Notes: generated by a model not told the origin, from the letters alone. Numbered from the stretch's first letter, positions 4,455 through 62,059 are shown. The stretch is 64,000 nucleotides of DNA from a virus (IMGVR_UViG_2675903278_000002); one strand, 5' to 3'. Program-made: numbers and translations.

Positions 4455-4471
4455 GTAGGTAGTTATCTATC
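4455..4471. promoter_or_regulatory. Box B palindrome-family copy (degenerate)
   Basis: GTAGGTAGTTATCTATC, 3 nt after the stop codon. Same core as the copy at 45037. Confidence 0.45.
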
Positions 4472-4515
4472 TGTGTATATTGCGTTGGCGCGTTAAATTT
4501 CTGAAACAACTATTC

Positions 4516-4548
4516 GTTTTTGGTGGCCTATGGCCACCATTTTTTTAT
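4516..4548 (+). terminator. Rho-independent terminator
   Basis: TGGTGGCC-tat-GGCCACCA followed by TTTTTTT. Confidence 0.8.
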
Positions 4549-4591
4549 CTGTCTGGTCTTGTTCTCTCAATAAATGTAAACTCACGCAATG

Positions 4592-4609
4592 AATAAGTGG
4601 TTACTTATC
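4592..4609. promoter_or_regulatory. Box B palindrome copy
   Basis: AATAAGTggTTACTTATC, 15 nt upstream of the thyA GTG start. Confidence 0.55.
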
Positions 4610-9427: not shown

Positions 9428-9448
9428 ATAGGTATTTACTTACCTATC
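9428..9448. promoter_or_regulatory. Box B palindrome copy
   Basis: ATAGGTAtttacTTACCTATC, 11 nt upstream of the methylase ATG. Confidence 0.55.
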
Positions 9449-10073: not shown

Positions 10074-10157
10074 AGCCTGCTTCTGTATATATAAATAACT
10101 ACATATTAATTATTAATATACGGAAGCAGGCTGTTTTGTATCAGAGACTCCAGACCT
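10074..10157. repeat. Long AT-rich hairpin element, copy A (second copy at 39559-39637)
   Basis: AGCCTGCTTCtGTATATATAAATAA...TTATTAATATACgGAAGCAGGCT followed by gttttgt. The downstream CCAGACCT is also conserved. Confidence 0.65.
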
Positions 10158-10237
10158 GAACATCACTACAGAATCCACTAGAACCCCTTCCCAGACGCTT
10201 TAAAATCGATTTTATGAATCACTTTAAGGAAACTAAC

Positions 10238-10468
10238 ATGTCATACCCGACTAATGTCGTTGCGCTCGTAGAGAGCGATTTTCTGGCCCAGGCCCGTGAA
10301 ATGATGAAAGATCGCGAGCAGGCTTTCAACTTGTACGAATGGGCAATTAAGTGCTTGCATCTTGGGGAGCATCGCGAACTTGTTGAACAGCTTTTAGGTG
10401 AGTTGATTAACGAGGTGTTTGCCTTGAATGTTCAACTACATGGTCGAGAAAATAATCAATCGAAATGA
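10238..10468 (+). CDS. Hypothetical protein
   Basis: ATG 10238 has AAGGA 7 nt upstream. The track start at 10214 remains possible. Confidence 0.45.
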   Translation: MSYPTNVVALVESDFLAQAREMMKDREQAFNLYEWAIKCLHLGEHRELVEQLLGELINEVFALNVQLHGRENNQSK

Positions 10469-10479
10469 TAGATAAGTAC

Positions 10480-10985
10480 AAACTATTCATAAAGTGAATT
10501 GTAAGTGCTAAGATCTGATAGTTTCCAGTCGTAGACTGGAGACTCGACCTGATGGGTGGGGGTAAGCGTCACTGGCGTCAGGTTTAAAAAAGCTCACTAC
10601 CAGCGTAGAACCGGTGCCGTTTAGGTGTCGGGGAAGGGGGAACCAAAGTGAGCGGAGACAAGGGTCACTTTATGATTGTCGAGTCTGGGGTGTTTCGAGA
10701 GGTTGAATCCAGTACTCCCCTTCATAAAGTGTGGGAAGATCTCGGTTCTGGGGTGCTGTCATCCATAACTTCCCAAGTCTAAGCTGGCAGTAGACTTAGG
10801 CCATAACTTTTCAGGTTATGAAACGACCAGGTTGGTGAGGGATTTTTATACTCACCTCCCTGGGAGAGTATTACCTGAAAAGACAACCTCTCACTTCGTT
10901 CGAGGTGAACTTCACTCACTTCGTTCGTTCAGTTCAGGTTTATAAAAACCTGTTCTGGGAAGTAATTTGTTTATTTTAATAATTA
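10480..10985. other. ORF-free, hairpin-dense region (candidate structured ncRNA or origin)
   Basis: No ORF of 60 aa or more in any frame. Long-range pairing AGACTCGAC (10540) with GTCGAGTCT (10678). At least 7 local hairpins. Direct repeats TTCATAAAGTG..AAGATCT x2 and TCACTTCGTTCG x2. Confidence 0.3.
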
Positions 10986-11052: not shown

Positions 11053-11646
11053 ATGACGACGAAGACACCAGCCCGATCGCAAGAAAAAACTCGCAAAAAA
11101 GCCAAAAACAAAAATTCTCCCCGCACCAATTCCACAACGCCTGTCGTAGAGTTCAATCCCCAGCTTAAAACCGTGAAAATCTTCAGTGATGGCTCTTGCC
11201 TTAAAAATCCGGGTGGCCCGGGCGGTTACGGTATAGTTCTCCAGTATCGTGGTGAGGAACGCGAGTTCTCAGATGGTTTTCATAGCACCACCAATAACCG
11301 CATGGAGATGATGGGGGCACTTATCGGGCTGGAGCGTTTGAAATATCCATGCAACGTTATTTTGCACTCTGATAGCCAGTATCTGAAAAACGGCATGACA
11401 CAGTGGATGAAATGGTGGAAACGCAATGGATGGGTGACTTCTGACAAAAAACCGGTAAAGAATGTTGATCTGTGGAAGCGTCTGGATGAGGCTGCAAGTC
11501 GACATAATGTTCGCTGGAAGTGGGTTAAAGGTCACGCCGGGCATCGTGAAAATGAAATATGTGATCGACTCGCGAAGATCGCAGCTTTTTCCGCAGCAGA
11601 TATGCCTCACAAGAAAGATATTGGTTTTGTTTACAACAAGCAGTAA
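11053..11646 (+). CDS. rnhA: Ribonuclease HI with ~40-aa basic N-terminal extension
   Basis: Motifs [35 protein letters not shown] and [13 protein letters not shown] are collinear with E. coli RnhA. ATG 11053 has AGGAG upstream. Confidence 0.9.
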
Positions 11647-11663
11647 GTAAGTGTTTACCTATC
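11643..11663. promoter_or_regulatory. Box B palindrome-family copy
   Basis: GTAAGTAAGTGTTTACCTATC, which includes the rnhA stop TAA. Confidence 0.5.
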
Positions 11664-14927: not shown

Positions 14928-16613
14928 ATGAATACAGCCCTTTCCATCATCGACGATGCCAACTCAAACACTGCTATCGACTATCGGCAGGAAATGAACG
15001 TCATCCACGAAATTGTGGCCGAGTGCGAGAAAGAGATCGCCTTCATGTATCAGGTACACGACTTCGTTTATGGCGACGAACGCCACAACATGATTAATCG
15101 CCTGCTGAGACTAAACCATCGACCAGATGAAGATCGCTCGCGTTTAAATCGAGGTTGGTTGGATAAAGTCGATCTGGAATGGGTGAAACAGAATATTTGG
15201 GCCGAGTACTGGAGGAAGGTCACGGACATGACTAACGTTTTGCTGATCATGCCAGCTTCCCGTCGAGATGAGTGGCGCGAGCAGTTTATAGAGGGCAAAC
15301 AGGAAGTCATCAAAACTGACAGAACCGGCTACCAGATGAAGGTTAAAGAGTTCGTTGGTGTACCGGAGTTCAAAGCAGAAACGGTCATACCCACGATGCT
15401 TAATTTGCTGAATGACAGGCACAAATATCTCTCTGAGCGCGTGTATGGCTTGTTTAAGGCGCTGAGTCCTGCGCACAAGACAAATAAGACAAACGGTTTC
15501 AGCGAACGTCTGATAATCGCTGACTGCATTTCTGATTTCTGGCGGGACAGCGTTAGTGTGAACTATCGCAAAGAGGACTATATCGACGATCTGCGTGTCT
15601 TGCTTCATTTCTTCGCGCACAAAGAATTTATTACCATCAACCGCACTGCTGAGGTGCTATCAGCTGCGTATCGGGCAAACGACTGCCAGACCGGTGACTG
15701 GATGAACGTCGATGGAAATCTAATGCGCGTGAAGATGTTCAAGAACGGCAACGTTCACTTTGAAATACATCCTGACGTGGCCTGGAAGTTGAATGAGGTG
15801 CTGGCTTACAGTATGCCTGCTGCAATCCCCGCGCCATGTCGCACCGCGCCAAAAACACGGGCACCAAAGCAGTTCGGGTTAATCCAGAAGACGATCTCCG
15901 TGCCGGTTCGCACTGCGCTTCGTGACGGGCGATTAAGCAAAGACAAAGGCGTATGGTACTTCTCTGATTCAGCTCTCCAGAAGTCGCAGGTGGAAGAGCT
16001 TGAGCGCACACTGAGCTTCATTGGCGGCGTGCAGGAGAAAAAGCACTGGCAGTTCCCGTATGAGATCGGCCATACGCTAAATACGATTGTGGCTACCGGA
16101 TTAATACCGGATACAAAATCACACCAGTTCTACCCTACCCCACGCTTGATTGCTGAGTACGTTGCCAGAGCCACTGAATTGAAGTCTGGTGAGAAGCTGC
16201 TGGAGCCTCAAGCCGGACGTGGGGATCTTCTGGCCTATATCAACGCCGATCTGGAAGATGTTACCTGCATAGAAATCGCACCTCTCTTCGCTGATATCCT
16301 GCGCGGAAAAGGGTATACGAACACGATTTGCTGCGACTTCATAAAGTGGTCTGAGGACAACGTAGGTTATCAGTTCGACAAAATCGTTATGAACCCGCCG
16401 TACTCGCTTGGTCGTCATAGAGAGCACACGCTGGCTGCGCTGGGGCATCTGAAAGTCGGCGGGCGTCTTGTAGCAGTATTGCCGGGCACTGCGCCAATAC
16501 TGGACTGGATGACGATGGATAATTACGTTTATGCCAGAGGGAAGTCGTTTACCAACGAGTTTGAAGACACAGGGATCACAGTCAGCGTATACGTTTTCAA
16601 ACGCGTTAAATGA
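14928..16613 (+). CDS. Two-domain protein: N-terminal domain of unknown function plus C-terminal SAM-dependent amino-methyltransferase (N6-A/N4-C type)
   Basis: Motif I LEPQAGRGDL and motif IV MNPPY in the last ~170 aa. Confidence 0.75.
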   Translation: MNTALSIIDDANSNTAIDYRQEMNVIHEIVAECEKEIAFMYQVHDFVYGDERHNMINRLLRLNHRPDEDRSRLNRGWLDKVDLEWVKQNIWAEYWRKVTDMTNVLLIMPASRRDEWREQFIEGKQEVIKTDRTGYQMKVKEFVGVPEFKAETVIPTMLNLLNDRHKYLSERVYGLFKALSPAHKTNKTNGFSERLIIADCISDFWRDSVSVNYRKEDYIDDLRVLLHFFAHKEFITINRTAEVLSAAYRANDCQTGDWMNVDGNLMRVKMFKNGNVHFEIHPDVAWKLNEVLAYSMPAAIPAPCRTAPKTRAPKQFGLIQKTISVPVRTALRDGRLSKDKGVWYFSDSALQKSQVEELERTLSFIGGVQEKKHWQFPYEIGHTLNTIVATGLIPDTKSHQFYPTPRLIAEYVARATELKSGEKLLEPQAGRGDLLAYINADLEDVTCIEIAPLFADILRGKGYTNTICCDFIKWSEDNVGYQFDKIVMNPPYSLGRHREHTLAALGHLKVGGRLVAVLPGTAPILDWMTMDNYVYARGKSFTNEFEDTGITVSVYVFKRVK

Positions 16614-16633
16614 TAGGTAAATACTTACCTAAT
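16613..16633. promoter_or_regulatory. Box B palindrome copy
   Basis: ATAGGTAAatacTTACCTAAT, starting within the methylase stop (TGATAGG). Confidence 0.55.
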
Positions 16634-17897: not shown

Positions 17898-18353
17898 ATG
17901 AGTAACAAAATCGAAAATCCCGTAGTTCTCATTCACAAGCGCGAGAACCACGACTCCTATGCGGTGGCGATCACCAATGGGAGTCACGATTTTTACGATG
18001 GCCTGCTAATGGCCTCAGTGTCGCCTGATGAGGCAGACAACTCTTTTGCCGTCTTCGCTATGGTTGGTTACTACATGGCTGCTGAAATTGAGAAGTTGCG
18101 GGCGCAGAGAGACGCATTAGCGGCGGAGAATGCAGCCCTGAAAGAATCTGAGCGAGCATTCGATGCGATGTGTGCCGAGGAACACGGAGATAATTGGGTT
18201 AGCGAATTAACGGAGACTCCAGCCACCGATGCTTTTCTGGCTGAAGTACGTGCGCAGGGCGTGGAGATGTTTGCTGAGTGCGCATACACACTTGAACATC
18301 ATGATCACGCAGTAGCTTTTGCCGCTGAGCTTCGTACAGGAAATAAACAGTGA
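17898..18353 (+). CDS. Ead/Ea22-like protein
   Basis: Coiled-coil KLRAQRDALAAENAALKE plus ETPATDAFLAEVRAQGVE, which I recall from lambdoid Ea22-like proteins. Shared leader GAGAAAAACACATG. Confidence 0.5.
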   Translation: MSNKIENPVVLIHKRENHDSYAVAITNGSHDFYDGLLMASVSPDEADNSFAVFAMVGYYMAAEIEKLRAQRDALAAENAALKESERAFDAMCAEEHGDNWVSELTETPATDAFLAEVRAQGVEMFAECAYTLEHHDHAVAFAAELRTGNKQ

Positions 18354-18916
18354 ATGAGATTTACTACCTGACGTTACGTGAACGTTATTCACCAAAACCA
18401 GCGCCTAAATGCTCTGTTTGTGGCGAGGAAATGTCAATACAGCGCATATCTGGAGCACATGTTGTTTATGCCTGTTCCGGTGAGAGTGATGACGGATATT
18501 TTAAGATAGGGCGTACTTTTGCAGATGAACATTATGAAAAATCACGCGTAACAGTAGTTGATGATAGTGATCCCGATGTGATTGCACTGCTGGACGAACT
18601 GGATAAAAGACAGCAACACATCCGACGTCTTGAGCAGGAGAACGTAGAGATGGCCCTAACGCTTGAGAAACTGCGTGTTGAGCTGGAGACCGTTAAACAG
18701 CGGGAAAAGGATCTGTTTATGGAAAATGTTCGACTTAAGTCAGGTATAGCAGGTCTGATACACCTCGGTATTCGATATGCGAATGTCGAAGTCATGAAAA
18801 TAGCTGGAGATGCCCAGCTTTCTACTCCCTGTACTGACAGCATCATAAACAGTATTGCATCAGGCGTTTTCACCAAAGAGGGTCAGCATTATGAGAACAG
18901 TAGAAGTTCGCGCTGA
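18350..18916 (+). CDS. Ead/Ea22-like protein (Cys-pair plus coiled coil)
   Basis: GTGA overlap with the upstream gene. CSVCGEEM...YAC, followed by a leucine-rich coiled coil. Confidence 0.45.
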   Translation: MNEIYYLTLRERYSPKPAPKCSVCGEEMSIQRISGAHVVYACSGESDDGYFKIGRTFADEHYEKSRVTVVDDSDPDVIALLDELDKRQQHIRRLEQENVEMALTLEKLRVELETVKQREKDLFMENVRLKSGIAGLIHLGIRYANVEVMKIAGDAQLSTPCTDSIINSIASGVFTKEGQHYENSRSSR

Positions 18917-19076
18917 AGATGTAACCCCAGGTGATGTGGTCATAACATCTAAAGGCAAACGATGTGCGGTTAAATCTTTCTGGATGGAAGGTGACAAAGT
19001 GACTCTGTTCGGTACGGATGGTTCCGAAACGGATTATGACTACGACGAATTGCTTGTTGTTGAGAGAGCTGCCTAA
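18891..19076 (+). CDS. Small hypothetical protein
   Basis: ATG 18891 has GAGGG 8 nt upstream. 61 aa. Confidence 0.4.
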   Translation: MRTVEVRAEDVTPGDVVITSKGKRCAVKSFWMEGDKVTLFGTDGSETDYDYDELLVVERAA

Positions 19077-19834
19077 TGACCACCTTAACCAAAGAACAGT
19101 TAATCTCCCATGCACGCGAAAGCGTTAGTTATCTGGAAGACTTGAAAGGACGTGTTAGTAAAGAAGGTGCGGACTGCAAAGTTGTTATTGAGATGGTTGC
19201 ACGAGATCTAAAACTGGCACGAATTGCACTGGCCTCGCTTGAGGCAAAACCAATAGGTGCATTCCACATTGCAGAACAGCAAGTTGACGGCACAAGTGAC
19301 TACCTCAAGGATGGAGAATGGCCTATTGATAATGGGACAATTGAAGTATACGCCGCCCCTCCAGTGCCAGTAGTACCGGAAGAAAAACCAATGCCTAACG
19401 CTCTAAGCATGCTTGAAAGAGAGATCACACAACTGATTGGTGATGCGCAGGAAGCCACTGTTACTGGCTATGAGTTAATCGCTGAAGCTTGGCGTTTGAT
19501 GGATGGACAAGACCCTAAAACCAGCGATTGGCATAGCAAGGCTTCGAAGTATTTAAATTCCAATATTGTAGAAAAAGTTGATGATGACCGTATTGAGGCT
19601 GTTAAGGCCGTTTTGCGTAGACTGGCTGGCAACCATCCGGATTTTCCGGATAGTTCCCAACAATCGCCCAAGAAAAGCGTAAAAACCACTCTGGAAAGAG
19701 GCTATCTTGAGGCCGCATTAAAGATTAAGCCGGGCCATACGCTAGGCGTCATTGATGCCATGTTGGTTCATGAAATGGCGAAGGCTTTATTGCCGCTGGT
19801 GGCTGATAAAATTCCGAATAAGGCCGATATCTGA
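19076..19834 (+). CDS. Hypothetical protein
   Basis: TAATG coupling to the upstream gene. 252 aa. Confidence 0.5.
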   Translation: MTTLTKEQLISHARESVSYLEDLKGRVSKEGADCKVVIEMVARDLKLARIALASLEAKPIGAFHIAEQQVDGTSDYLKDGEWPIDNGTIEVYAAPPVPVVPEEKPMPNALSMLEREITQLIGDAQEATVTGYELIAEAWRLMDGQDPKTSDWHSKASKYLNSNIVEKVDDDRIEAVKAVLRRLAGNHPDFPDSSQQSPKKSVKTTLERGYLEAALKIKPGHTLGVIDAMLVHEMAKALLPLVADKIPNKADI

Positions 19835-19845
19835 TCACCATGCTA

Positions 19846-19876
19846 AAATCCCCTCAATTCACAGAGGGGATTTTTG
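19846..19876 (+). terminator. Rho-independent terminator
   Basis: 10-bp stem AAATCCCCTC/GAGGGGATTT followed by TTTTT. Confidence 0.8.
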
Positions 19877-19879
19877 TAT

Positions 19880-20146
19880 ATGTTGCATAGAGTTTTATGG
19901 AAAAGCGTTATTGTCGGCGCGATACTGGCTATATCTGGGTGTGCAATGGTGCAATACAACGACGGTGAAAAGGTAAGCATACAGTCAGATGGTTGGTATG
20001 GCCTGGATAGCCTGCAAAAAACCGCAGATAAAGCCTGTCAGCAATATGGGAAGTCTAAAGCAGTATATCAGCATAGCGCGAACGCTAACCCTAATCTTGC
20101 GCCCGGTTCGGGTGTTCAGAATACCATCTGGAAATGTGAGCCTTAA
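19880..20146 (+). CDS. Small lipoprotein
   Basis: Signal peptide with lipobox [12 protein letters not shown]. 88 aa from ATG 19880. Confidence 0.6.
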
Positions 20147-20148
20147 AT

Positions 20149-20400
20149 ATGAGCGACTGGAATATTGCAGCTAAAAGTCAGGAAGAACGGGATAAGGTTA
20201 ACGTTGATCTGGCTGCCAGCGGTGTGGCGTACAAAGAGCGATTGAACATACCTGTCATAGCTGAACAGGTAGCCCGCGAGCAACCAGAGAACCTGCGCAC
20301 CTATTTCATGGAACGGTTACGGCACTACCGGCAGTTAAGCCTCCAGTTGCCAAAAGGAAGCCATCCGGTGTATCAGAACGAGGATGCACCAAGAAAATAA
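20149..20400 (+). CDS. Hypothetical protein
   Basis: 83-aa ORF starting 2 nt after the upstream stop. Confidence 0.5.
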
Positions 20401-20407
20401 CGGCAAG

Positions 20408-20776
20408 ATGGGGAAGACATTAAACATGCTTAACTATCACGACAACACGCGTTCTATGCAGACAATCCGCACCAATACAGCGGTGGTCGATAGCTTTCCT
20501 GTACATACTCAAGGCCGTGAAGATACCGTGGAAGTGCGACGCATGTTGTGTCGCCGGTCACCAGGCCACCAGCACTTCATCGTAACGTTTAAAAGCGATG
20601 TAGAGCGCGCCGAGAAAATCTCTAACTCCACATCTCTGGTTAGTCCGTTGGCGGAGGTTATTGTGCGCAACAATAAGGCGCGCTTTGTCCTTGAGGAGCA
20701 TCATTCTGATTTTAATGAAAAAATTGAGTCAAGCATTTTGCAATATATGAATGGCAAGTTCACGCCACCAATGTGA
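20408..20776 (+). CDS. Hypothetical protein
   Basis: The start is uncertain (20384, 20408 or 20426). Confidence 0.4.
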   Translation: MGKTLNMLNYHDNTRSMQTIRTNTAVVDSFPVHTQGREDTVEVRRMLCRRSPGHQHFIVTFKSDVERAEKISNSTSLVSPLAEVIVRNNKARFVLEEHHSDFNEKIESSILQYMNGKFTPPM

Positions 20777-20837
20777 TTAGCCCCCAGCGTGGCGCGCCTG
20801 CAAACCCCGCTTTCACAAACTATGCCTTTTCAATGTA

Positions 20838-24755: not shown

Positions 24756-25055
24756 ATGTTGAACATTACCCAAGCCTACCAGGTGGCATTGATCAGCTCA
24801 TCTCATACATCAGAGGAAGATGCTCGCCGATTCATGATCGCAAGCAATGAGCTGGATTGGGTTTCACAAATTGAGTACGGTTGCATTGTCCACGCCGGGT
24901 TACAGGACGATGACTGGAAAGATGAGTTGCGTCGATATGGTATATCCGAGGGCGCGATTGCGAACATTCAGAAAGTACTTGATGTAGGCTTTGACTCTGT
25001 ACATTTTGATTGTGGTGCACCGGTCGTTGAAGGGCTAGAGTGCTGGCAATGGTAA
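24756..25055 (+). CDS. Hypothetical protein
   Basis: ATG 24756 has GGAG 8 nt upstream. 99 aa. Confidence 0.5.
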   Translation: MLNITQAYQVALISSSHTSEEDARRFMIASNELDWVSQIEYGCIVHAGLQDDDWKDELRRYGISEGAIANIQKVLDVGFDSVHFDCGAPVVEGLECWQW

Positions 25056-25091
25056 TCCGGCAATCGCTTCATACTAGACAACGGAGAATTT

Positions 25092-25277
25092 ATGCTTAAA
25101 GAAGACTCATATCTACTAAAGGCGCTTGAAATGCGTGGCGTTGAACCTACAGTGAAAAACGCTCACGATATCTACCTTCAGTTTTCACCGGAGCTGAAAC
25201 GGTTCATAAATCAATACGGGGTTAATGACTCAAGTGTTAAAGCAATGATAGATGATGAATTAGACCATCTCATCTAA
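25092..25277 (+). CDS. Small hypothetical protein
   Basis: 61 aa. SD GGAGA upstream. Confidence 0.45.
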   Translation: MLKEDSYLLKALEMRGVEPTVKNAHDIYLQFSPELKRFINQYGVNDSSVKAMIDDELDHLI

Positions 25278-25429
25278 TCGTTTCCTATGATAATGGTTTT
25301 CACTTTGAGATTGTTATTTTTCATAGCTAAAGCTGATGTTTGTGGAAGGTGGATTGATAAACGGATGCGTATTTAGGTTATACAAGTGAGAAAATTGATA
25401 ATATATAAACGCGATTTTTATGTGATGGA

Positions 25430-25999
25430 ATGGATGTGATGGAAACCCAGAACCAACAAACAAAACCTCTGAATAACATTTATGCGTGGATTCTAGCGTT
25501 CATGCCTTTCTTCTTTGGAGTATCGCCGGAAGAGTATACCAATTACGCTATTATAATTGGGGGTGTAACTACCATCGGTTTGTTAGTAGCTGACAGAATG
25601 GCTCTATCGGAGTCTGGCTGTGAACCACCTTCAATTCTATGGGGGGTATTCCTCCTGCCTGTCTATCTCTGGAAGCGCGCGACTATTACAAAAGGCAGCA
25701 GAGTGCCATTTATCATAATCGTTGCGTCGCTGGCTTGGATTATCTTCATCGGCATCCCACACAAGGACGAGGTTGCTCTTGAAGAAGCAGCCTGCCCTCT
25801 CGTGACAACTATTCTGAAAGAGAATAACGGTTCGACTGCACCAAAATGTATGAAGGTGACAATAGAGGACAAGGTGACGGATAAGTTCTATAGAGCAACG
25901 GCTACACTAGACAATGGTAATGACATTAACATTACTCTGGAACTTACCGGCGACAGGAACTTCTACGTCCGTGTTCCAAATGTTTATCTGAACAACTAA
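25430..25999 (+). CDS. Membrane protein (about 4 TM segments plus soluble C-terminal domain)
   Basis: Hydrophobic segments IYAWILAFMPFFF, AIIIGGVTTIGLLV, ILWGVFLLPVYLW and FIIIVASLAWIIFIGI. Lies in AT-rich surroundings. Confidence 0.5.
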   Translation: MDVMETQNQQTKPLNNIYAWILAFMPFFFGVSPEEYTNYAIIIGGVTTIGLLVADRMALSESGCEPPSILWGVFLLPVYLWKRATITKGSRVPFIIIVASLAWIIFIGIPHKDEVALEEAACPLVTTILKENNGSTAPKCMKVTIEDKVTDKFYRATATLDNGNDINITLELTGDRNFYVRVPNVYLNN

Positions 26000-26099
26000 C
26001 GGTTGCAACTTATTGATAATGGCGGTCACAATTTGATTCTTTTCTATAAGAACCCGTTGATCGCCACTACTCCCCTCCCATACCAGCAATCACATCATT

Positions 26100-27801: not shown

Positions 27802-27806
27802 GAGTG

Positions 27807-28797: not shown

Positions 28798-28801
28798 TAT
28801 T

Positions 28802-28817
28802 GTAAGTACATACTTAT
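28802..28817. promoter_or_regulatory. Box B palindrome copy
   Basis: GTAAGTACATACTTAT. This is the only cassette in the array that carries Box B instead of Box A. Confidence 0.55.
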
Positions 28818-36325: not shown

Positions 36326-36345
36326 ATAAGTAAGTGATTACTTAG
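36326..36345. promoter_or_regulatory. Box B palindrome copy in the divergent helicase/ParB-like intergenic region
   Basis: ATAAGTAAgtgaTTACTTAG. Confidence 0.55.
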
Positions 36346-39637: not shown

Positions 39638-39651
39638 AATTAAACACCCCA

Positions 39652-39666: not shown

Positions 39667-39676
39667 AGCAGATGCA

Positions 39677-39692
39677 GTAAACAAGTTGTTTT
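39677..39692. promoter_or_regulatory. Box A palindrome copy
   Basis: GTAAACAAGTTGTTTT, 39 nt upstream of the terS ATG. Confidence 0.6.
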
Positions 39693-39721
39693 AGAGCGCA
39701 TGGACGCGCTCTGTGTGTTTT
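39693..39721 (+). terminator. Leader hairpin upstream of the packaging operon (terminator-like)
   Basis: AGAGCGC-atggac-GCGCTCT followed by gtgtgTTTT. The U-tract is not contiguous with the stem. Confidence 0.4.
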
Positions 39722-39731
39722 AGAGGGATCT

Positions 39732-40364
39732 ATGACGGTCGAAAAAGACGAGGTAAAAACTCGCCTGACACCAGCGGAGTGGGCCGAAGCTGAAGCCAAA
39801 TGGACGTCAGGCGAATATACACTCTCAAAGCTGGAGGAAGAGTACGGCATTCGTCGTGAAACACTCTCCAGACATTTCAAAAAGCGAGGATTAGAGAAAG
39901 GCGCGGACTCTGTTGGGAAGATGGTTCGTGAGTCTCTTAAATCTGACGCAGAGCTTCGCGCTAAAGCCCGTGCGGAAAAGATAGAAGAACGTCGTACACG
40001 TTATGACGGCTGGGCGTATGCGTTGGGGCAGATGGTGATGGTCGAAGTCACTACGGCCAAACGTGAGGGTAAGCCTTTAGGGGCGATTGAGGATTCTCTC
40101 AAGAGCTTACAGAGAGCCAGTAATACCCTTGCAAAATGCTTTGAAGTTTCGTCCAAAGCATTGGGCATGGATCATGCGGAAAATGACGAGGAAGAAATTC
40201 CGAACCTGGTATTTGGTGAGCTTACGCCTTCCCAGGTGGCGAAATTACGTCAGGAAGACGACGAGCCTGAAATCATCGATGACGAATTGCTTGAGACGTT
40301 GGAAGAAGAAGCTCTAAGCGAATTTGATGCGACAGATGATGGAAGTGAAGGGGAGGACGAATAA
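39732..40364 (+). CDS. Terminase small subunit (putative)
   Basis: Lies immediately upstream of, and is ATGA/TAATG-coupled to, the large subunit. N-terminal HTH-like LSKLEEEYGIRRETLSRHFKKRG and an acidic C-terminus. Confidence 0.65.
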   Translation: MTVEKDEVKTRLTPAEWAEAEAKWTSGEYTLSKLEEEYGIRRETLSRHFKKRGLEKGADSVGKMVRESLKSDAELRAKARAEKIEERRTRYDGWAYALGQMVMVEVTTAKREGKPLGAIEDSLKSLQRASNTLAKCFEVSSKALGMDHAENDEEEIPNLVFGELTPSQVAKLRQEDDEPEIIDDELLETLEEEALSEFDATDDGSEGEDE

Positions 40365-41620
40365 TGGCAATCCCGTCCTCGCTCAGTCTTGTGCAACTGC
40401 ATTCTGGACAGATGAAAGTCTTCCAGTCTCCGCATCGATTTAAAGTTGTTTGTGCTGGTCGACGCTGGGGAAAATCCCGGTTGTCGATCTCCACTATTAT
40501 TCGTGCGGCGGCAAAGGAAAAAAAGCAAAGAGTCTGGTATGTCGCTCCTACTTACCAGATGGCTCGCCAGATTTTGTGGGACGATCTACAGGAAGTTCTG
40601 CCTCGTAAGTGGGTTAGGAAAAAGAACGACACCACGATGACAATCGTGTTGAAGAACGGTTCGGAGATCGCCCTCAAAGGTGCTGATAAGCCTGACACTC
40701 TGCGCGGCGTAGCGTTGCATTTTGTAGTGCTTGATGAATTTCAGGATATGAAGGCTGACACCTGGTACAAGGTGTTACGACCTACTCTTTCATCGACACG
40801 CGGCGGTGCACTGATCATTGGTACGCCAAAAGGCTTCTCGGAATTTCACAAACTGTGGACTATAGGCCAGAACGTAGAGCTGCAAACAAAGGGACAGTGG
40901 AAGAGCTGGCAGTTTGTAACTGCCGATTCTCCGTTTGTACCTACGGCGGAAATTGAAGCTGCTAAGAACGATATGGACCCGAAATCGTTCGCTCAGGAGT
41001 ACCTGGCGAGCTTTGAGAACATGTCCGGGCGCGTTTACTACCCGTTCGATCGTAACGTGCATGTAAAACCGCTTCAGTTCAACCCTCGGTTGCCTATATG
41101 GGTAGGGCAGGACTTCAACATTGACCCGATGTCTTCAGTAATTTTGCAACCTCAGCCAAATGGTGAGCTATGGGCAATTGATGAATTGGTGCTCTTTTCC
41201 TCTAACACGGCAGAGGTTTGTGATGAGCTTGAGAGACGCTTCTGGCGCTGGAAATCACAGATAACGGTATTTCCAGATCCGGCAGGTGCTTATCGCCAAC
41301 ATGCTCGCGGGGAGTCTGACGTCGACATATTCAAAGAGAAGGGATTCTTACGTGTCGATTATTCGAAAAAGCACCCGCCAATTGCGGATCGTGTTAATGC
41401 TGTTAACCGAATGCTGATGACCGCATCTGGAGATATCCGGCTGTATATCGATCCGAAGTGCAAGCATTTGATTGATTCACTGGAAAAAGTCATCTACAAG
41501 CCTGGAACACGAGATATGGATAAGACAGGTGGCATTGAGCATAGTGCAGACGCATTGGGCTATCCAGTACATCGTAGGTATCCAGTCAAAAACCGTGTTA
41601 TTCTTGGTGGTTCTCGATAG
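40364..41620 (+). CDS. Terminase large subunit
   Basis: Walker A-like VCAGRRWGKS, Walker B HFVVLDEFQD, and a C-terminal nuclease-type DPAG region. Confidence 0.85.
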   Translation: MAIPSSLSLVQLHSGQMKVFQSPHRFKVVCAGRRWGKSRLSISTIIRAAAKEKKQRVWYVAPTYQMARQILWDDLQEVLPRKWVRKKNDTTMTIVLKNGSEIALKGADKPDTLRGVALHFVVLDEFQDMKADTWYKVLRPTLSSTRGGALIIGTPKGFSEFHKLWTIGQNVELQTKGQWKSWQFVTADSPFVPTAEIEAAKNDMDPKSFAQEYLASFENMSGRVYYPFDRNVHVKPLQFNPRLPIWVGQDFNIDPMSSVILQPQPNGELWAIDELVLFSSNTAEVCDELERRFWRWKSQITVFPDPAGAYRQHARGESDVDIFKEKGFLRVDYSKKHPPIADRVNAVNRMLMTASGDIRLYIDPKCKHLIDSLEKVIYKPGTRDMDKTGGIEHSADALGYPVHRRYPVKNRVILGGSR

Positions 41621-41638
41621 GTAAGTAATTATCTAAGG
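41617..41638. promoter_or_regulatory. Box B palindrome-family copy
   Basis: ATAGGTAAGTAATTATCTAAGG. Its TAG is the terL stop codon, and it lies 9 nt before the portal ATG. Confidence 0.55.
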
Positions 41639-41646
41639 TTATTCAA

Positions 41647-43221
41647 ATGGAATTGAACGACAAACAAATTAAGGATCTGGTGGCGCGACGCCACCCGGAA
41701 TACGAAAAGAAAAAAGAACATTGGGACTTCCTCGCCAGCACTTACGCTGGCGGGCGTGGTTGGTTTACAGACAATATCTTTCGTTACTTTAAAGAGGGAG
41801 ATCAGGAGTTTAAGGAGCGAGTTGAACGTGCTTATCGCTTCAACCACACTCGTGAGGTGGTAAACCTCATCAACAAATATCTCTTTAAAGAAGACATTCA
41901 TAGAAATATCGAAGAGGCACCAGAGCAGATCCGCAATTTCTGGAAACGTGCGACTCGCCAGAATGCCTCTATTGACTCATTTATGGCCGCTATTGATTTG
42001 CAGTCGTCTATTTACGGTCGCATATGGGTTGTTGTCGATAGCACGATGAGTGGTGATGTTGAGTCAGTAGCTGACGAGAAAAAGAAAGATGCTCGCGCCT
42101 ACGCCTACTGGATTTCACCTCAGCAAATGCTGGATGTGGCATGGGACGACGACGGGAATATGTTGTGGGCGTTAATTGTGGAAGTCGCTCGTGATGACGC
42201 AGATCCTTTTACTTCTACAGGTCAGGAATACCAACGTTATCGTCTGTGGACACAAAACGAGTGGTATCTGTTCCGTGAGGAAGTGAAGAAGGGCGCTGGT
42301 GGAGCAGGTCGCCGTCAGGCAAAAGTTATTTTAGAGGATAGCGGTGAGCATAATCTCGGCGTAGTTCCTGTGTTTCCTGTTGATTGTATTGGAGAAAGTG
42401 AATCACCGTATTTCAGCCCATCGTTGATCGATGATATCGCTTATCTTGATCGTGCGGTTGCAAACTATCTGTCAAACCTTGATGCCATTATTCAGGATCA
42501 GACATTTAGCCAGTTGGCTATACCGGTACAGTCGCTTTTACCTGGTGATGAAAACCACACTAAAGTGCTTGAAATGGGCACAAAGCGAGTATTCACCTAC
42601 GATTCTGAAGGTGGAAACCAGCCGTTTTATCTGTCACCAGACCCGAAACAAGCTCAGATGATCATCACTACGATTAAGACGGTGATTAACGAAATCTACC
42701 ATTCAGTTGGTGTAGCTGGTGAGCGAACGAAGCAGGACAACGCACAGGGAATCGATAATTCATCTGGTGCCGCAAAAATGTATGACTTCCAGCGTGTAAA
42801 TAGCTTGCTTGTCACAAAAGCAGAGCGTCTGGAAAGGGCTGAACGCCAAATCATGCTACTGGTTGCGAAATGGATGGGGGTAGATCTGGACGAAGACCAC
42901 TCTTTAATTGCGTATCCAGAAAGTTTCGATATTCGTGGCCTTACTGATGAATTTTCTGTTGCCGAGAAACTGTCATTACTTCAGGCACCGGACTCTGTAC
43001 GTCGTCACCAGATGGAAATGCTTATTGAGAAGATTTTCCCGAACATTACTGAGGCGATGAAAAAGGAATTTGATAAAGATCTCTTGAATTTTCCTCCAAA
43101 AAATGATCTAAATACCCTTGAAAATAAGTCAGTACTTACTTATGATCGTGGTGCAGCCCAAGAAAGCGGGCAAGATCAACCCCGAGGGAATGGGGACTCA
43201 TCTACTCAAGAGAACGAGTGA
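41647..43221 (+). CDS. Portal protein
   Basis: 524 aa, directly downstream of the large terminase. The call rests on size and synteny. Confidence 0.75.
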   Translation: MELNDKQIKDLVARRHPEYEKKKEHWDFLASTYAGGRGWFTDNIFRYFKEGDQEFKERVERAYRFNHTREVVNLINKYLFKEDIHRNIEEAPEQIRNFWKRATRQNASIDSFMAAIDLQSSIYGRIWVVVDSTMSGDVESVADEKKKDARAYAYWISPQQMLDVAWDDDGNMLWALIVEVARDDADPFTSTGQEYQRYRLWTQNEWYLFREEVKKGAGGAGRRQAKVILEDSGEHNLGVVPVFPVDCIGESESPYFSPSLIDDIAYLDRAVANYLSNLDAIIQDQTFSQLAIPVQSLLPGDENHTKVLEMGTKRVFTYDSEGGNQPFYLSPDPKQAQMIITTIKTVINEIYHSVGVAGERTKQDNAQGIDNSSGAAKMYDFQRVNSLLVTKAERLERAERQIMLLVAKWMGVDLDEDHSLIAYPESFDIRGLTDEFSVAEKLSLLQAPDSVRRHQMEMLIEKIFPNITEAMKKEFDKDLLNFPPKNDLNTLENKSVLTYDRGAAQESGQDQPRGNGDSSTQENE

Positions 43222-45036: not shown

Positions 45037-45060
45037 GTAGTAGATAAGTAGTTATCTATG
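45037..45060. promoter_or_regulatory. Box B palindrome-family copy
   Basis: GTAGTAGATAAGTAGTTATCTATG. Confidence 0.5.
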
Positions 45061-45062: not shown

Positions 45063-45092
45063 AAAGGGTGGGCTATACGCCCACCCTTTTTG
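45063..45092 (+). terminator. Rho-independent terminator after the capsid gene
   Basis: GGGTGGGC-tatac-GCCCACCC followed by TTTTT. Confidence 0.9.
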
Positions 45093-48226: not shown

Positions 48227-48610
48227 GTGTTTATTGAAGCGTTTGCAAGTTTGATGCAGAAGGCAAAGATTGGCACGGTCGGGACTGACATTTTCTGTCA
48301 CTACTTGCCTGCCAATGTGAAATCTGGCGTCCTGCTTATTAACCCAAATACCGGCATCAGCATCGATCATGAGCTACAGGGCTTTTATCACGAATCATTC
48401 ACAATCATTGTGCGTGGTTCGTCAATTACTACGACGGTTGAGAAAGCCCATAAAATCATTGAGATGTTTCCAGTAGAGGAAACGGAATCTGGTGGTGTTT
48501 ATTTTCGACTTGTACGACCGATGGCGATGCCAATCATTTATCCCAAAAATGATGGGGCATTAATAGAAGCAGGCATTCCTGTTGAATTTGCTGGCTATTT
48601 ATTGAATTAA
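48227..48610 (+). CDS. Tail terminator-like protein (gpU position)
   Basis: GTG 48227 has GAGAGG 6 nt upstream. 127 aa, immediately before the tube gene. Confidence 0.5.
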   Translation: MFIEAFASLMQKAKIGTVGTDIFCHYLPANVKSGVLLINPNTGISIDHELQGFYHESFTIIVRGSSITTTVEKAHKIIEMFPVEETESGGVYFRLVRPMAMPIIYPKNDGALIEAGIPVEFAGYLLN

Positions 48611-48617
48611 CTCAATT

Positions 48618-48636
48618 GGTAAGTATATACTTACTA
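48618..48636. promoter_or_regulatory. Box B palindrome copy (perfect)
   Basis: GG-TAAGTATATACTTA-CTA, a perfect 14-bp palindrome. Confidence 0.6.
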
Positions 48637-55111: not shown

Positions 55112-55117
55112 GTATCT

Positions 55118-55143
55118 GGATAAGTAAGTACTAATTTACTATC
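55118..55143. promoter_or_regulatory. Box B palindrome-family copy
   Basis: GGATAAGTAAGTACTAATTTACTATC. Confidence 0.5.
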
Positions 55144-55193
55144 ATTGTGGCGCTGACAGGATGTTAGCGCCTACTTATTTCAAGGATGAAACA

Positions 55194-60200: not shown

Positions 60201-62008
60201 CAAGAGATGAAGCGGCGGCTCTTATTGCTAAGGAAAGCGAGGCTCGTGTTGAAGGCGATGCTGCAAACGCTAAACAACTGGAAGTGTTGCAGTCAACGGT
60301 AGAGGAAAGCTCCGCTGCCGTTGAAGAAATGAAAAAGACGGTTGCAGAGGTCGATCGTGCCAGTGCAGAACTGACTACGAACATTGAGGCGTTAGCCAAA
60401 ACAAATATTGACCTGGCTCTTCGTCAAGATGAAGACCAGCACAAGCAGATGGTCAATAACGCGAAGATCGCAACAACACAGAAAACCTTTGCTGATGATA
60501 TGTCTGCAATGGCCACGAAGGTTGAGGAAATTCGCGTAGAAATTGGCGAAGACATTAAGGCCAGTATTCTGGAAGAGTCCACCGCTCGTGCCGATGGCGA
60601 TGAAGCGTTGGCAAAGCGTGTCACTCAGCTGCAATCTAAGTTTGAAGGAGATATCAGCGCGGCGATTAGTACAGAGCAGGAGGCTCGTACATCTGCCGAT
60701 GAAGCTCTGACGACACAGATCACTCAGCTTGAGTCGAAAGTAAGCAACGATATCGTCGCAGCTATTAAGGAAGAGCAAGAAGCCCGAGCAACGGAAGATT
60801 CGGCTCTGGCAAGCCAGATCACCCAACTTCAGGCAAAGGTTGATGATGATATTTCTGCTGCAATACGTAGTGAGCAGGAGGCCCGAGCAAGCGGGGACTC
60901 TGCGTTAGCCAAACAAATAAACCAGCTTCAGTCAAAGGTTGACGGTGATATATCCGCTGCCATCACTCAGGAGCAGGAGGCCAGAGCAAGTGCTGACCAG
61001 GCGCTCTCACGAGAAATTAACAGCCTGCGAGCACAAACCGGAACTGATATTGCCGCAGCGGTTGCTGTAGAGACAAAAGCAAGGACTGATGCCGATAGTG
61101 CATTGTCTACCCAGATTACGTCTCTTACAGCAAAAGCTAATGATCTCGAGGCGTCTCTTGCCAGAGAAACAACGGCTCGTGCAGATGGTGATACCGCTTT
61201 AACAAAAGAGGTTTCAAGTTTAAAAGCACAGACAGCGAAAGATATTAGTGCGGCCGTTGCAGTTGAAACGCAGGCTCGAACTGATGCTGACTCGGCGTTG
61301 TCGTCTCAGATCACCAAGCTGACCTCTCAATACAAAGAGGATATTAAAGCGGCTGTAGCAACCGAAACGAAAACGCGTACAGAGCAAGATGCTGCATTGG
61401 CGACTCAAATCACAAACTTAGAGTCTCAAACGGCAGCCAACATTTCCGCGGCGGTAACAACTGAAACGACAGCGAGAACGCAGGCAGATAATGCTCTGAG
61501 TGGGCGAATCGATACTCTGAAAGCAGAGGTGGATGGAAATACCGCGACAATTCAACAGCAGGCAACAGCTATTGCTGATACCAACAAAAAAGTATCAACC
61601 GCGTGGACGTTGAAAATGGAGACTTCAACGAGCGGAGGGCAGAAGTATGTTGCCGGTATTGCGCTTGGTATTGACACCACTGGGCTATCTCAGTTTTTGG
61701 TTCAGGCGGACAGGTTTGGTTTGGTCAACTCTGTTAACGGGAAGATCACAACGCCATTTGTTATCGAAAACAGTATCGCCTATATGAATGGAGCGTATAT
61801 CAAGGATGGCACAATCACCAATGCAAAAGTAGGCGATCTGCAATCTACCAATTTTGTTAGCGGTAGATCTGGATGGCGGTTCGGCAAAAATGGAACGCTT
61901 GAGATCAACGGTAATAGCGGCGGCAATGGGCGATTGGTTATAAATGGTCAGCGGATTGACGTTTATGACGATAACAACGTCCTACGAGTAAGAATTGGCC
62001 GTCTGTGA
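57281..62008 (+). CDS. Central tail fibre / host-specificity protein, lambda gpJ-like, with inserted coiled-coil repeat array
   Basis: The N-terminal ~850 aa is J-like, with an FN3-type segment. The C-terminus KYVAGIALGIDTTG...FLVQADRFGL is J-like. The start is ATG 57281 or TTG 57275. Confidence 0.9.
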   Translation: MEQFKKKKLPLFIAGAGGKKSSKSSSRTPVEADDTVNSRAMAAILDLLGEGVIGGLVNGARSIFIDDLPIVNEDGSSNFSGITWDFRDGSQDQTPMSGFDFVETPKSVNIQLKKTHYVTVSIDNDEADRVRVIMKFPSLRSIDKKTGDTNGTTVEYKFQIANGDSTFVDVVAEGEKSVGIKLTAKKTGVYYRSYELKLPKPGRAYKVRVVRITDDNSSQYLYNDTWVDSIGEIVDTPMNYPNSVLVGLKVNSEQFGSTMPSRSYLVRGLKIRVPSNYNESSNTYAGVWDGTFKLLSSSNPAWILFDLLTNARYGLGQYVSESMIDLGQLYQIGRYCDEEVDDGFGGKEKRFAINTQITSRQDAYRLIQDIAGAFRGMVFWAGGMVNIMQDSPSDPVMMFTNSNVKDGLFTYKGSARKDRPSVALVTYNNKEDGYKQNIEYVEDQDAMRRYGERKTEVVAFGCTSRGQAHRVGLWLLYTARMESDVITFTAGLDASFLMPGETVLIQNKYRAGKRNSGRIVAFTKNSVTLDAPVSLAKGGCFIRILNQEGKIVERDVLETGENITKVTFSKALSSAETPVLNGVWTITEPDLEPMRVRIVNIAQGETPGSFDITAVENNPSKYEAIDNGATLIPQNTTVLDPTYSKPSNLQITEGTYLSSPGNLSVKLTATWEGKSPEYWISWRRSDENNVSNWQSARVTEEQYEIVNVAENGRYDFQLYAVSFNGKKTEIISAVYQVLGTMTPPDSPTSLTAVGDYRNVILNWVNPDSVDLDHINVYASQTNNLDTAKLIAESASTTFTHAGLGDSETWYYWVRASNKRGMLSPPNSNLGTEATTRDVLSFLTGKITSSELGQALLEDINSKASQEAVDELNEHINQSVESLEGAVNDVKEDIAELDQQFSDNLADFEIKFNERSDALENAQTELKGEVSATIDKVNEAFEKIDATDAAIVEIENTVSEHDKALANTVEAIKAARDEAAALIAKESEARVEGDAANAKQLEVLQSTVEESSAAVEEMKKTVAEVDRASAELTTNIEALAKTNIDLALRQDEDQHKQMVNNAKIATTQKTFADDMSAMATKVEEIRVEIGEDIKASILEESTARADGDEALAKRVTQLQSKFEGDISAAISTEQEARTSADEALTTQITQLESKVSNDIVAAIKEEQEARATEDSALASQITQLQAKVDDDISAAIRSEQEARASGDSALAKQINQLQSKVDGDISAAITQEQEARASADQALSREINSLRAQTGTDIAAAVAVETKARTDADSALSTQITSLTAKANDLEASLARETTARADGDTALTKEVSSLKAQTAKDISAAVAVETQARTDADSALSSQITKLTSQYKEDIKAAVATETKTRTEQDAALATQITNLESQTAANISAAVTTETTARTQADNALSGRIDTLKAEVDGNTATIQQQATAIADTNKKVSTAWTLKMETSTSGGQKYVAGIALGIDTTGLSQFLVQADRFGLVNSVNGKITTPFVIENSIAYMNGAYIKDGTITNAKVGDLQSTNFVSGRSGWRFGKNGTLEINGNSGGNGRLVINGQRIDVYDDNNVLRVRIGRL
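60584..61570 (+). repeat. Ten tandem 99-bp (33-aa) repeats inside the J-like gene
   Basis: Unit starts at 60584, 60683, 60782, 60881, 60980, 61079, 61175, 61274, 61373 and 61472. Unit consensus AR..(G/A)D.AL..QI..L.SKV..DISAAI..EQE. Confidence 0.85.
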
Positions 62009-62038
62009 TGGTGGAAAAAAAATTTTATATCGGTAAAA

Positions 62039-62059
62039 ATAGGTAAGTATTTACTTAAT
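62039..62059. promoter_or_regulatory. Box B palindrome copy
   Basis: ATAGGTAAGTATTTACTTAAT, followed by the hairpin GGCGGG-n9-CCCGCC and AAGGAG. Confidence 0.55.

Follow-up and report, generated by a model that had tools for sequence, protein, structure and literature searches.

In the phage-plasmid P1, the many operators of a single repressor, C1, are scattered at the promoters of lytic functions, the repressor gene carries operators of its own, and many C1 operators are entered as 'protein_bind' features in the P1 record. The Lpa late promoters of the same phage (NC_005856) have the form AAGTGACTT-N4-(-10), in which an inverted repeat with AAGT/ACTT half-sites replaces the -35 hexamer just upstream of the -10 at the heads of many genes. 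A third arrangement is found with RK2 KorB and its OB sites and with ParB and parS, where a dozen or more palindromes are dispersed over a plasmid, some at promoters and some remote. The concept of one regulator with many dispersed operators is already known from P1 and RK2. The element described here, Box B, is a 20-26-bp palindrome that recurs in a 64,000-nucleotide stretch of viral DNA (IMGVR_UViG_2675903278_000002; hereafter the window, meaning the whole stretch analysed), and by analogy it resembles the C1 operators in logic and the P1 late promoters in position.

The differences from each of these systems are as follows. The P1 C1 operators are asymmetric 17-mers, unlike the Box B palindrome, and the candidate repressor in the present case is a 128-amino-acid protein of the XRE type, while the sites are more numerous and reach into the structural operon. 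No C1 homologue was detected in any SSU5-like genome (tblastn, E<=1), and no Box B copy was present in the 50-94.8 kb stretch of P1. As in the lambdoid Cro/CI switches, a small XRE regulator (CYRAN_45) lies beside the integrase gene, with a divergent small open reading frame (ORF) and a palindrome at its own predicted promoter, and the Box B half-sites resemble those of the P22 c2 type (..TAAG / CTTA..). The lambdoid operators are, however, clustered at two control regions, whereas Box B occurs in about 30 copies over roughly 100 kb, and unlike CI the XRE protein has no detectable S24 cleavage domain. The centre of Box B can be read as AAGT·ACTT, like the Lpa half-sites, but the repeat spacing is N1 in P1 and 0, 4 or 8 in Box B, which is also much longer, symmetric to ±13, not restricted to late genes and provided with a -10-like flank on both strands. 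Homologues of Lpa were absent from the window, Cyrano, SSU5, pJN2-26 and the Acinetobacter and Moellerella relatives (tblastn, best E 0.29). Finally, ParB-family genes with one copy of the site in front of them recall KorB, but no DNA-binding helix-turn-helix can be recognised in the ParB-like proteins of the window, their genes are not expressed while the element is a plasmid, and beyond the one adjacent copy nothing ties them to the motif.

We favour, at close to even confidence, the reading that Box B is the dispersed operator of the XRE repressor encoded next to the integrase, which would silence the lytic promoters and autoregulate the repressor gene. In such a mechanism, an XRE dimer would bind the palindrome at the heads of lytic transcription units, at about 30 copies, and when placed over the -35, spacer and -10 it would keep sigma70 RNA polymerase off during the plasmid state. 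The site over the predicted start point of the XRE gene would provide autoregulation, and loss of binding on induction would allow many promoters to fire together. We infer the identity of the binder, repression by binding and the way in which repression lifts from the evidence given below. The searchable literature has nothing on how SSU5-type elements silence about 100 kb of lytic genes or switch them on, and searches on the motif and on promoters or operators of SSU5 or pHCM2 returned nothing relevant. One motif at about 30 junctions, together with a candidate regulator, opens this silencing question to direct experiment, and Box B also provides an annotation handle, since it shows where transcription units start in plasmids that are poorly annotated and number in the hundreds.

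The window and the genomes compared

The window is, by megablast placement, an SSU5-like phage-plasmid (SSU5 group). Its closest match is Escherichia phage Cyrano (pLF82 of E. coli LF82, OV696614), with an identity of ~98-99% in general and 99.4% over 10 kb, while Salmonella phage SSU5 and Klebsiella phage-plasmids are 78-82% identical. With Cyrano it is collinear over 68,008-108,379 plus 1-24,409, apart from a few segments that are replaced; the segments 18132-20829, 25055-26012, 27542-27912 and 33110-34465 have little or no similarity to Cyrano and represent accessory-gene replacement, and their edges match the positions of neither Box B nor a second palindrome, Box A. SSU5-type phage-plasmids are common in Enterobacterales and Acinetobacter, and an SSU5-type capsid gene was found in 953 plasmids of one public collection, Y. 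pestis pMT1 included. The S. Typhi plasmid pHCM2 is also a member of this family, and phage-plasmids are reported in published work as carriers of resistance genes.

The comparison used the complete records of five genomes: Cyrano, SSU5, Klebsiella pJN2-26, and one relative each from Acinetobacter baumannii and Moellerella. Expression values were taken from the published LF82 RNA sequencing (RNA-seq) table (PMC9928086), which covers lysogens in lysogeny broth (LB) and a macrophage 6-h sample and has a median background of 9.8; Cyrano is present at ~5.5 plasmid copies per cell.

Enrichment, placement and conservation of Box B

Box B is a real motif family, as proposed in a first-pass annotation made from the sequence of the window. 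At <=2 mismatches, TAAGTANNTACTTA occurred 22 times in the window against 1.43 expected, a count that none of 100 shuffles reached, and a symmetric position matrix yielded 16 matches against 0.1 in shuffled sequence. Over full genomes, the same matrix gave 32 matches in Cyrano, 30 in SSU5 and 31 in Klebsiella pJN2-26, compared with 0.1-0.3 in shuffled sequence. True copies number 14 in the window and about 30 per whole replicon. The first-pass annotation had likewise listed 14, of which 12 were recovered within 0-4 nt. Its copy at 39581 is instead the loop of a separate long-hairpin family, and the 'half-site' at 43218 has no score with the matrix. Two copies that it had not listed, 10468-10487 (weak) and 43124-43143, bring the total again to 14. 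A further matrix match at 10091, also not listed earlier, was rejected as another long-hairpin loop like the one at 39581.

Placement was strongly biased. Thirteen of the 14 window copies are intergenic (P ~5e-11, given 13% intergenic DNA), so the motif is not equally common in coding sequence; the copy at 43124-43143, in the 3' end of the portal ORF, is the sole one in coding sequence and corrects the earlier description of all copies as intergenic. Cyrano is 86.7% coding, and all of its good copies except one are intergenic (P ~6e-17). The distance to the start codon, previously put at 9-50 nt, was 19-59 nt from the motif centre at nine copies, but 108-520 nt at the other five. Overlap with the upstream stop codon was borne out at the three copies for which it had been described (those at 11643, 16613 and 41617), and upstream stops also abut the motif at 4450-4452 and 10466-10468. 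Box B and Box A never occupy the same junction in the window, again as first described, but the accompanying statement that every structural junction with a motif uses Box B does not hold, since the terS junction uses Box A.

Between the E. coli, Salmonella and Klebsiella genomes, each copy is retained at its orthologous junction, while the intergenic flanks diverge and gain indels. The Moellerella plasmid has 18 copies of TAGGTAtttACTTAC-like sites. The Acinetobacter plasmid, whose capsid protein is only 59% identical, has 34 copies of aTTAT-TAGTAAGCGCTTACTA-TAAT, 29 of them intergenic, and these share the places terL-portal, post-capsid, UvsW-ParB-like and post-helicase. The motif is conserved in related genomes, with E. 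coli, Salmonella, Klebsiella and Moellerella members carrying it and the distant Acinetobacter relative a sister palindrome, and it takes the form GGTAAGTACTTACC in enterics, AGTAAGCGCTTACT in Acinetobacter and TAGGTATTTACTTAC in Moellerella. The GTAAG-N2-CTTAC core common to enteric and Acinetobacter sites indicates an old, family-wide element.

Site anatomy

The half-sites TA(A/G)GTA and TAC(C/T)TA pair at spacings of -2, 2 and 6 only, and among GTAAG/CTTAC pairs N2 is the commonest spacing and N6 the second, a pattern that arises because the arms are 4-bp periodic (TAGG-TAAG-TA). Since ATARGTAA-N4-TTACYTAT describes 71 of the 75 copies, and each base is mirrored out to ±11-13, the ideal site can be written as the 26-bp sequence AT(r)ATAGGTAAGTACTTACCTAT(y)AT. 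Its conserved core is GTAAG-N2-CTTAC, equally readable as TArGTA-N2-TACyTA. Among orthologues, the central four bases are free to vary and the arms are held.

The palindromic sequence had also suggested an intercistronic RNA hairpin, that is, a stem-loop in polycistronic transcripts acting as a processing site, stabiliser or translational operator. On the Cyrano sense strand folding is indeed slightly better (22 sites vs 8), and some differences between the window and Cyrano are G·U-compatible, but the bias is not consistent, with 12 vs 17 in SSU5 and 13 vs 18 in pJN2-26, and the predicted folding energy of many copies is only 0 to -3 kcal/mol. A covariation test over 66 copies placed complementary cells at 79.0% against a shuffled mean of 79.0% (271 of 500 shuffles were as high), with a score of 0.158 equal to the shuffled value. 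At degenerate R/Y mirror positions there was no enrichment of G·C, and G·T was no commoner than A·C (14 vs 15 and 23 vs 23). The stems are AT-rich and without a T run, conservation extends symmetrically into the would-be loop, and an Rfam scan of the window gave no match. The RNA hairpin was rejected on these grounds, and we consider it very improbable. That the arms match each other only because each fits the consensus is instead the signature of a dimeric protein on duplex DNA, and on its sequence pattern Box B is a site in double-stranded DNA, with two-fold symmetry, to which a protein binds.

Promoter-like sequences and expression

An averaged alignment of the copies displayed no fixed -10 or -35 hexamer beyond ±13. 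The outer arm itself reads TATyAT, a -10-like sequence starting ~7-8 nt from the centre, equally on both strands. When sigma70-like promoters were defined by a -35 hexamer, a 16-18 nt spacer and a -10 hexamer with at least 9 of 12 matches, their overlap with the core, counted over 75 copies, was seen at 22 for the gene strand and at 4 for the other, and in Cyrano 8 of the 40 plus-strand promoter-like matches genome-wide fall on Box B. The register between palindrome and hexamers differs among sites, a variability that would be tolerated by a repressor and not by an activator. Before CYRAN_56, Box B occupies the spacer of a near-consensus TTGAAA-17-TATCAT (10/12 matches).

In LB lysogens, CYRAN_4 and CYRAN_56, both behind 10/12 promoters, stood at 10.9 and 5.0 (the detection floor), respectively, against the median of 9.8, and genes downstream of Box B were in general at background, with CYRAN_34 and CYRAN_81 as the exceptions. 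Silence of near-consensus Box B promoters on a plasmid of ~5.5 copies would imply active repression. After 6 h in macrophages, the lytic blocks with the strongest induction began at Box B junctions (CYRAN_46, 60-62, 56-57, 12-13 and 4-5), and the mean step at promoter-bearing copies was +1.09 log2 (P 0.13). As support for promoter activity at Box B, we regard the macrophage data as suggestive only. In the lysogen condition B6, RNA fell across Box B junctions (P 0.001 overall, 0.024 compared to other real-gap junctions). The motif also precedes genes for ribonucleotide reductase, thymidylate synthase, the Dam-like methylase, a gp32-like single-stranded DNA-binding protein and an SbcD-like nuclease, and one copy adjoins the regulator gene.

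Candidate binding proteins

The XRE regulator CYRAN_45 is encoded outside the window, where its gene overlaps the end of the integrase gene and diverges from a 70-amino-acid ORF. The protein has a weak, sub-threshold match to Pfam HTH_19 (E 8e-4) and matches phrog_8 'transcriptional regulator' (E 1e-11), and its homologues were annotated by depositors as XRE or helix-turn-helix regulators. Residues Q28, G36, N41, S44, I46 and G49, which probably lie in and around the helix-turn-helix region, are invariant across eight clades, with overall identity down to 29-45%. For the gene a promoter TTTACA-16-TAATAT is predicted, and right behind it, at 31-34 nt from the ATG, comes (A/G)GTAAGYACTTACC. This Box B copy, which overlaps the predicted start region, is present in E. 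coli, Klebsiella, Salmonella and Y. pestis pMT1, and a Box B-like copy lies in the XRE promoter region of Moellerella too. Homologues of the regulator were found in 995 plasmids, whose distribution over genera equals that of the 953 plasmids with an SSU5-type capsid gene, and in 9 of 12 SSU5-like records of a phage collection; those without are two SSU5 records and the 84-kb ST13-OXA48phi12.3. Among the candidates, XRE was the only one clearly expressed in lysogens, at 96, compared with 7.8 for a winged-helix protein, 5.0 and 9.5 for the two ParB-like genes (CYRAN_119 and CYRAN_120) and 18 for an FljA-like regulator.

SSU5 (~42,600-42,760, compared with Cyrano 39,491-43,038) is without the block of integrase, XRE regulator and small divergent ORF, and its contiguous junction at this locus was found in none of 822 matching plasmids. 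This phage thus has the appearance of a derivative that arose by deletion of the lysogeny module. The gene divergent from XRE, CYRAN_46 (Cyrano 42826-43038, 70 amino acids, outside the window), was the most strongly induced Cyrano gene in macrophages, at +6.4 log2 after 6 h, and the integrase gene (+4.7) and the S24 peptidase gene CYRAN_98 (+5.0) rose with it. Half-sites (ATAGGTA, CTTACC) are present in the leader region of CYRAN_46, which may be the Cro-like or anti-repressor side of the switch.

A second candidate is an 88-amino-acid protein encoded directly upstream of terS (window 39270-39536, + strand). It is predicted to form a winged helix-turn-helix, with a predicted local distance difference test (pLDDT) value of about 87 over residues 1-55 and weak fold matches to the LexA DNA-binding domain, and it occurs in every clade, namely in SSU5 (88% identity), Klebsiella, Moellerella (62%) and Acinetobacter (33%). 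Its gene was silent in LB lysogens and rose by +3.6 log2 in macrophages at 6 h, independently of the upstream gene. Were Box B the target of an activator, this protein would be the natural candidate.

The two ParB-like proteins (window 36363-37043 and 37043-37711) match the ParB N-terminal domain only, and where they align with the helix-turn-helix of Spo0J their sequence is acidic and varies between members. They belong to a conserved four-gene cluster (window 36363-39260, + strand) together with two ABC-type ATPases, one of which is an acetyltransferase fusion according to the Cyrano annotation. The proteins of this cluster are among the better conserved of the family, one ATPase being 54% identical to its Acinetobacter and 98% to its SSU5 counterpart.

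Two other proteins were considered and set aside. A regulator of the FljA family ('repressor of phase-1 flagellin'; window 33420-34022, - strand; Pfam E 2.5e-84) is encoded within a segment that differs from Cyrano (about 33110-34465) and is present in enteric members. It was rejected as the binder on account of its absence from the Acinetobacter relative, which has the sister motif, and its weak expression in lysogens. The Acinetobacter relative (NZ_CP096770.1, 109298-109963) has an annotated sigma-70 family sigma factor beside MoxR/CobT-like genes; a phage sigma factor reading Box B was rejected as this protein has no detectable homologue in the enteric genomes.

Alternative readings of Box B

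Several observations weigh against an XRE operator. About 70% of the copies have no recognisable -35 hexamer, and -35-less promoters would be either weak or in need of an activator; the TATyAT flank, for its part, may simply belong to the palindrome. The spacing between GTAAG and CTTAC varies by multiples of 4 (N2, N6), a variation that a rigid dimer could hardly accommodate except by using registers that overlap. The copy at 41617 lies too near a start codon, and the one at 45040 before a terminator, to act as promoters, and CYRAN_34 and CYRAN_81 are expressed in lysogens despite the Box B upstream. The RNA-seq associations are weak (Fisher P 0.03-0.13 for induced blocks at Box B), and in macrophages, where Box B promoters become more active, XRE mRNA goes up, not down. 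Although it has no XRE gene, SSU5 retains about 30 intact copies, and XRE was put forward as the binder from proximity, co-distribution and expression. Some of these points suit the main rival, in which Box B marks a -35-less class of phage promoter, analogous to the Lpa-dependent late promoters of P1, and a dimeric activator, for which the 88-amino-acid winged-helix protein would be a candidate, sits on the palindrome near -20 and recruits host RNA polymerase to the -10-like hexamer. The copies without a usable -35 nevertheless all have TATyAT at 8 nt from their centre, an equally placed TATAAT or TAATAT is found in the sister motif of Acinetobacter despite its different sequence, and the inverted repeat of the P1 late promoters lies in the same zone. 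Site number and placement before individual genes also resemble phage middle or late promoter sets, and the winged-helix protein is found in every clade, including SSU5, which retains all copies in the absence of XRE. Yet the likeness to a -10 is the same on the non-coding strand and gives no directional signal, the register shifts from site to site, and those sigma70 promoters that are near consensus and have Box B as spacer should work unaided but are silent in lysogens. At the predicted XRE start, binding can only repress, and the macrophage step-up occurs only at Box B junctions with good sigma70 hexamers. The late-promoter element proposed in the first-pass annotation survives only when modified to this activator-dependent class, given the copies before early-type genes of replication and nucleotide metabolism, the lack of an Lpa homologue and the -10-like flank on both strands. 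On balance we regard the activator reading as rather unlikely. It is a little more doubtful still that Box B would represent a new -35-less promoter class, read by a phage factor such as the winged-helix protein, similar in operation to P1 Lpa but with an activator that is not homologous, and conserved from Acinetobacter plasmids to Y. pestis pMT1; under that reading the palindrome at the XRE gene could also serve as the operator of the switch.

The remaining readings are improbable to a greater degree. The first-pass annotation had pointed to an operator for a dispersed-site regulator, with the ParB-like proteins as possible binders in the manner of RK2 KorB. On such a reading they would load at parS- or OB-like sites and silence or organise the replicon. 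Its operator half is the best supported of the proposals, and a KorB-like binder would fit the many dispersed palindromes of 14-20 bp, the copy that precedes the ParB-like operon by 26 nt in each of the five clades examined, the universal presence of both proteins in the family and the GGEHRWRAA retained in the N-terminal domain of ParB-like 1. The binder half fares poorly, as only that domain was detected, the Spo0J-aligned region is acidic and expression of both genes does not exceed background in lysogens; partition has an operon of its own, moreover, which is ParA-based and carries Box A rather than Box B. We consider this version quite improbable, and barely less so one in which Box B is punctuation with no role in initiation, be it a roadblock or boundary, a six-frame stop backstop or a linker for module exchange. 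Many copies do lie at, or within 10-30 nt of, the upstream stop, especially in Acinetobacter, the arms hold stop codons in up to three frames per strand, some intergenic regions include two copies flanking a terminator, and RNA steps down across the junctions in B6. A third in-frame stop is, however, present in under half of the copies, nearby terminators can explain the RNA step-downs, and gene-oriented promoter-like sequences are enriched at Box B. Mosaic or recombination boundaries at Box B were rejected, as the breakpoints between the window and Cyrano (18132, 20829, 25055, 26012, 27542, 33110 and 34465) do not coincide with copies.

Individual copies in the window

The coordinates of the Box B copies, and of the two other repeat families, are collected in Table 1. 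The intergenic region of the 4455 copy also holds a terminator-like hairpin followed by the second Box B copy, and its orthologous site is retained in Cyrano, SSU5 and pJN2-26, flanked by TTGTAR-17-TATATT. Orthologues of the 4589 copy in SSU5 and pJN2-26 have a centre that is 4 nt longer. At 9428, the arms are conserved in four genomes and variation is confined to the central 4 nt, while the weak copy at 10468 corresponds to a good copy, ATCGGTAAGTACTTACCATT, in SSU5. The 16613 copy lies 55 nt upstream of an Ead/Ea22-like gene. The 28798 copy overlaps a sigma70-like TTGTAA-17-TAGAAT (28800-28828, + strand), and the gene downstream of its Cyrano orthologue was up in the macrophage 6-h sample. 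At the UvsW-ParB-like junction, the motif is also found in SSU5, pJN2-26, Moellerella and Acinetobacter, and at the terL-portal junction, where the right edge of the copy is the ribosome-binding site of the portal gene (TAAGGT), it is present in all five clades examined.

Table 1. Positions of Box B, Box A and long-hairpin copies; window coordinates unless Cyrano is named
Feature	Genome	Position	Sequence	Matrix score	Context
Box B (weak)	Window	4455..4474	GTAGGTAGTTATCTATCTGT	17.6	Begins 3 nt past MazG-like stop
Box B	Window	4589..4608	ATGAATAAGTGGTTACTTAT	21.6	Centre ~23 nt before thymidylate synthase start; then TATCTT
Box B	Window	9428..9447	ATAGGTATTTACTTACCTAT	23.7	15/16 arm matches; 24 nt before Dam-like methyltransferase start
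Box B (weak)	Window	10468..10487	ATAGATAAGTACAAACTATT	15.6	Abuts stop of small ORF 10214-10468
Box B	Window	11643..11662	GTAAGTAAGTGTTTACCTAT	22.1	Includes RNase H-like TAA stop (11644-11646); then TATCAT; conserved in four genomes
Box B	Window	16613..16632	ATAGGTAAATACTTACCTAA	26.3	Abuts DUF4942 gene TGA (16611-16613); orthologues conserved
Box B (core)	Window	28798..28817	TAAGTACATACTTA		Exact 14-mer match; downstream of intrinsic terminator
Box B	Window	36326..36345	ATAAGTAAGTGATTACTTAG	17.7	83-bp divergent region between UvsW-like helicase (-) and first ParB-like gene (+)
Box B	Window	41617..41636	ATAGGTAAGTAATTATCTAA	18.7	Contains terL TAG stop (41618-41620)
Box B	Window	43124..43143	ATAAGTCAGTACTTACTTAT		Inside portal ORF 3' end; 108 nt upstream of scaffold-like gene
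Box B	Window	45040..45059	GTAGATAAGTAGTTATCTAT	19.0	Between major capsid stop and intrinsic terminator (45066-45090)
Box B (perfect 14-mer)	Window	48615..48634	TAAGTATATACTTA		Upstream of tail tube gene
Box B	Window	55120..55139	ATAAGTAAGTACTAATTTAC		Tail M-L junction; within TGGATA-17-TATCAT (55117-55145, + strand)
Box B	Window	62039..62058	ATAGGTAAGTATTTACTTAA	18.9	Exact 14-mer at 62044; between J-like tail protein and side fibre gene
Box A (13-mers)	Window	12541, 13270, 24679, 24730, 28399, 39679			
Box A	Cyrano	82, 29259, 32080, 58595, 80549, 81278, 93114, 93165, 96286			
Long hairpins	Window	10074-10132, about 39557-39625			
Long hairpin	Cyrano	about 31150-31215			

The copy inside the portal ORF occupies the 17-nt spacer of a sigma70-like TTGAAA...TATGAT (43118-43146, + strand; 10/12 matches), which is the best promoter-like match in 40-60 kb. 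Its 29-bp core, from the -35 as far as the -10's TAT, has not changed in Cyrano, SSU5 or pJN2-26, and among the window, Cyrano and SSU5 identity runs for 33 nt, compared with a local identity of 80-85%. In the enteric genomes only the -10 of this site varies, being TATGAT or TATCAT, and the Moellerella equivalent reads TTGATA-17-TATGAT. RNA of the scaffold-like and capsid genes stepped up in the macrophage 6-h sample. After the capsid gene, the order of motif and then terminator is also seen in SSU5 and pJN2-26, and Acinetobacter has a post-capsid copy. The 48615 copy, whose 4-nt longer centre is conserved in three genomes, lies within a sigma70-like TTGAAT-18-TATACT (48602-48631, + strand), and for the Cyrano tail tube gene the RNA step was +2.5 log2 in the macrophage 6-h sample. 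The 55120 orthologues carry TAGATA-17-TATTAT, and the 62039 copy is conserved in Cyrano and SSU5.

GC-rich hairpins lie directly 3' of three Box B copies, at 45066-45090, 55149-55171 and about 62063-62083. The post-capsid hairpin is a canonical terminator, while the other two are without a clear T run and could be 5' stem-loops of transcripts starting at Box B.

Box A and the long-hairpin family

Box A is the palindrome AAACAAnTTGTTT, usually written agaAAACAAnTTGTTTa, and it has 6 copies in the window, 9 in Cyrano, 11 in SSU5 and 11 in pJN2-26. A GATAAT-like -10 precedes the copies by about 12-20 nt, a start codon follows them at 10-20 nt, and the genes served include parA, the replicative helicase and terS. 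Some of the operons linked to it (parA-CYRAN_30, CYRAN_102) are expressed in lysogens. Box A is probably the operator of a second regulator.

The long hairpins have 17-nt arms, AGCCTGCTTCTGTATAT and ATATACGGAAGCAGGCT, and AT-rich loops. One of them, at the point where the linear record of Cyrano ends, lies just upstream of terS, and another follows the parA operon, at a sharp drop in RNA. In the hairpin loop at 39583, the sequence AAGTAACTT-ATTA-AATATA is similar to the late promoters of P1 (AAGTnACTT-N4-(-10)).

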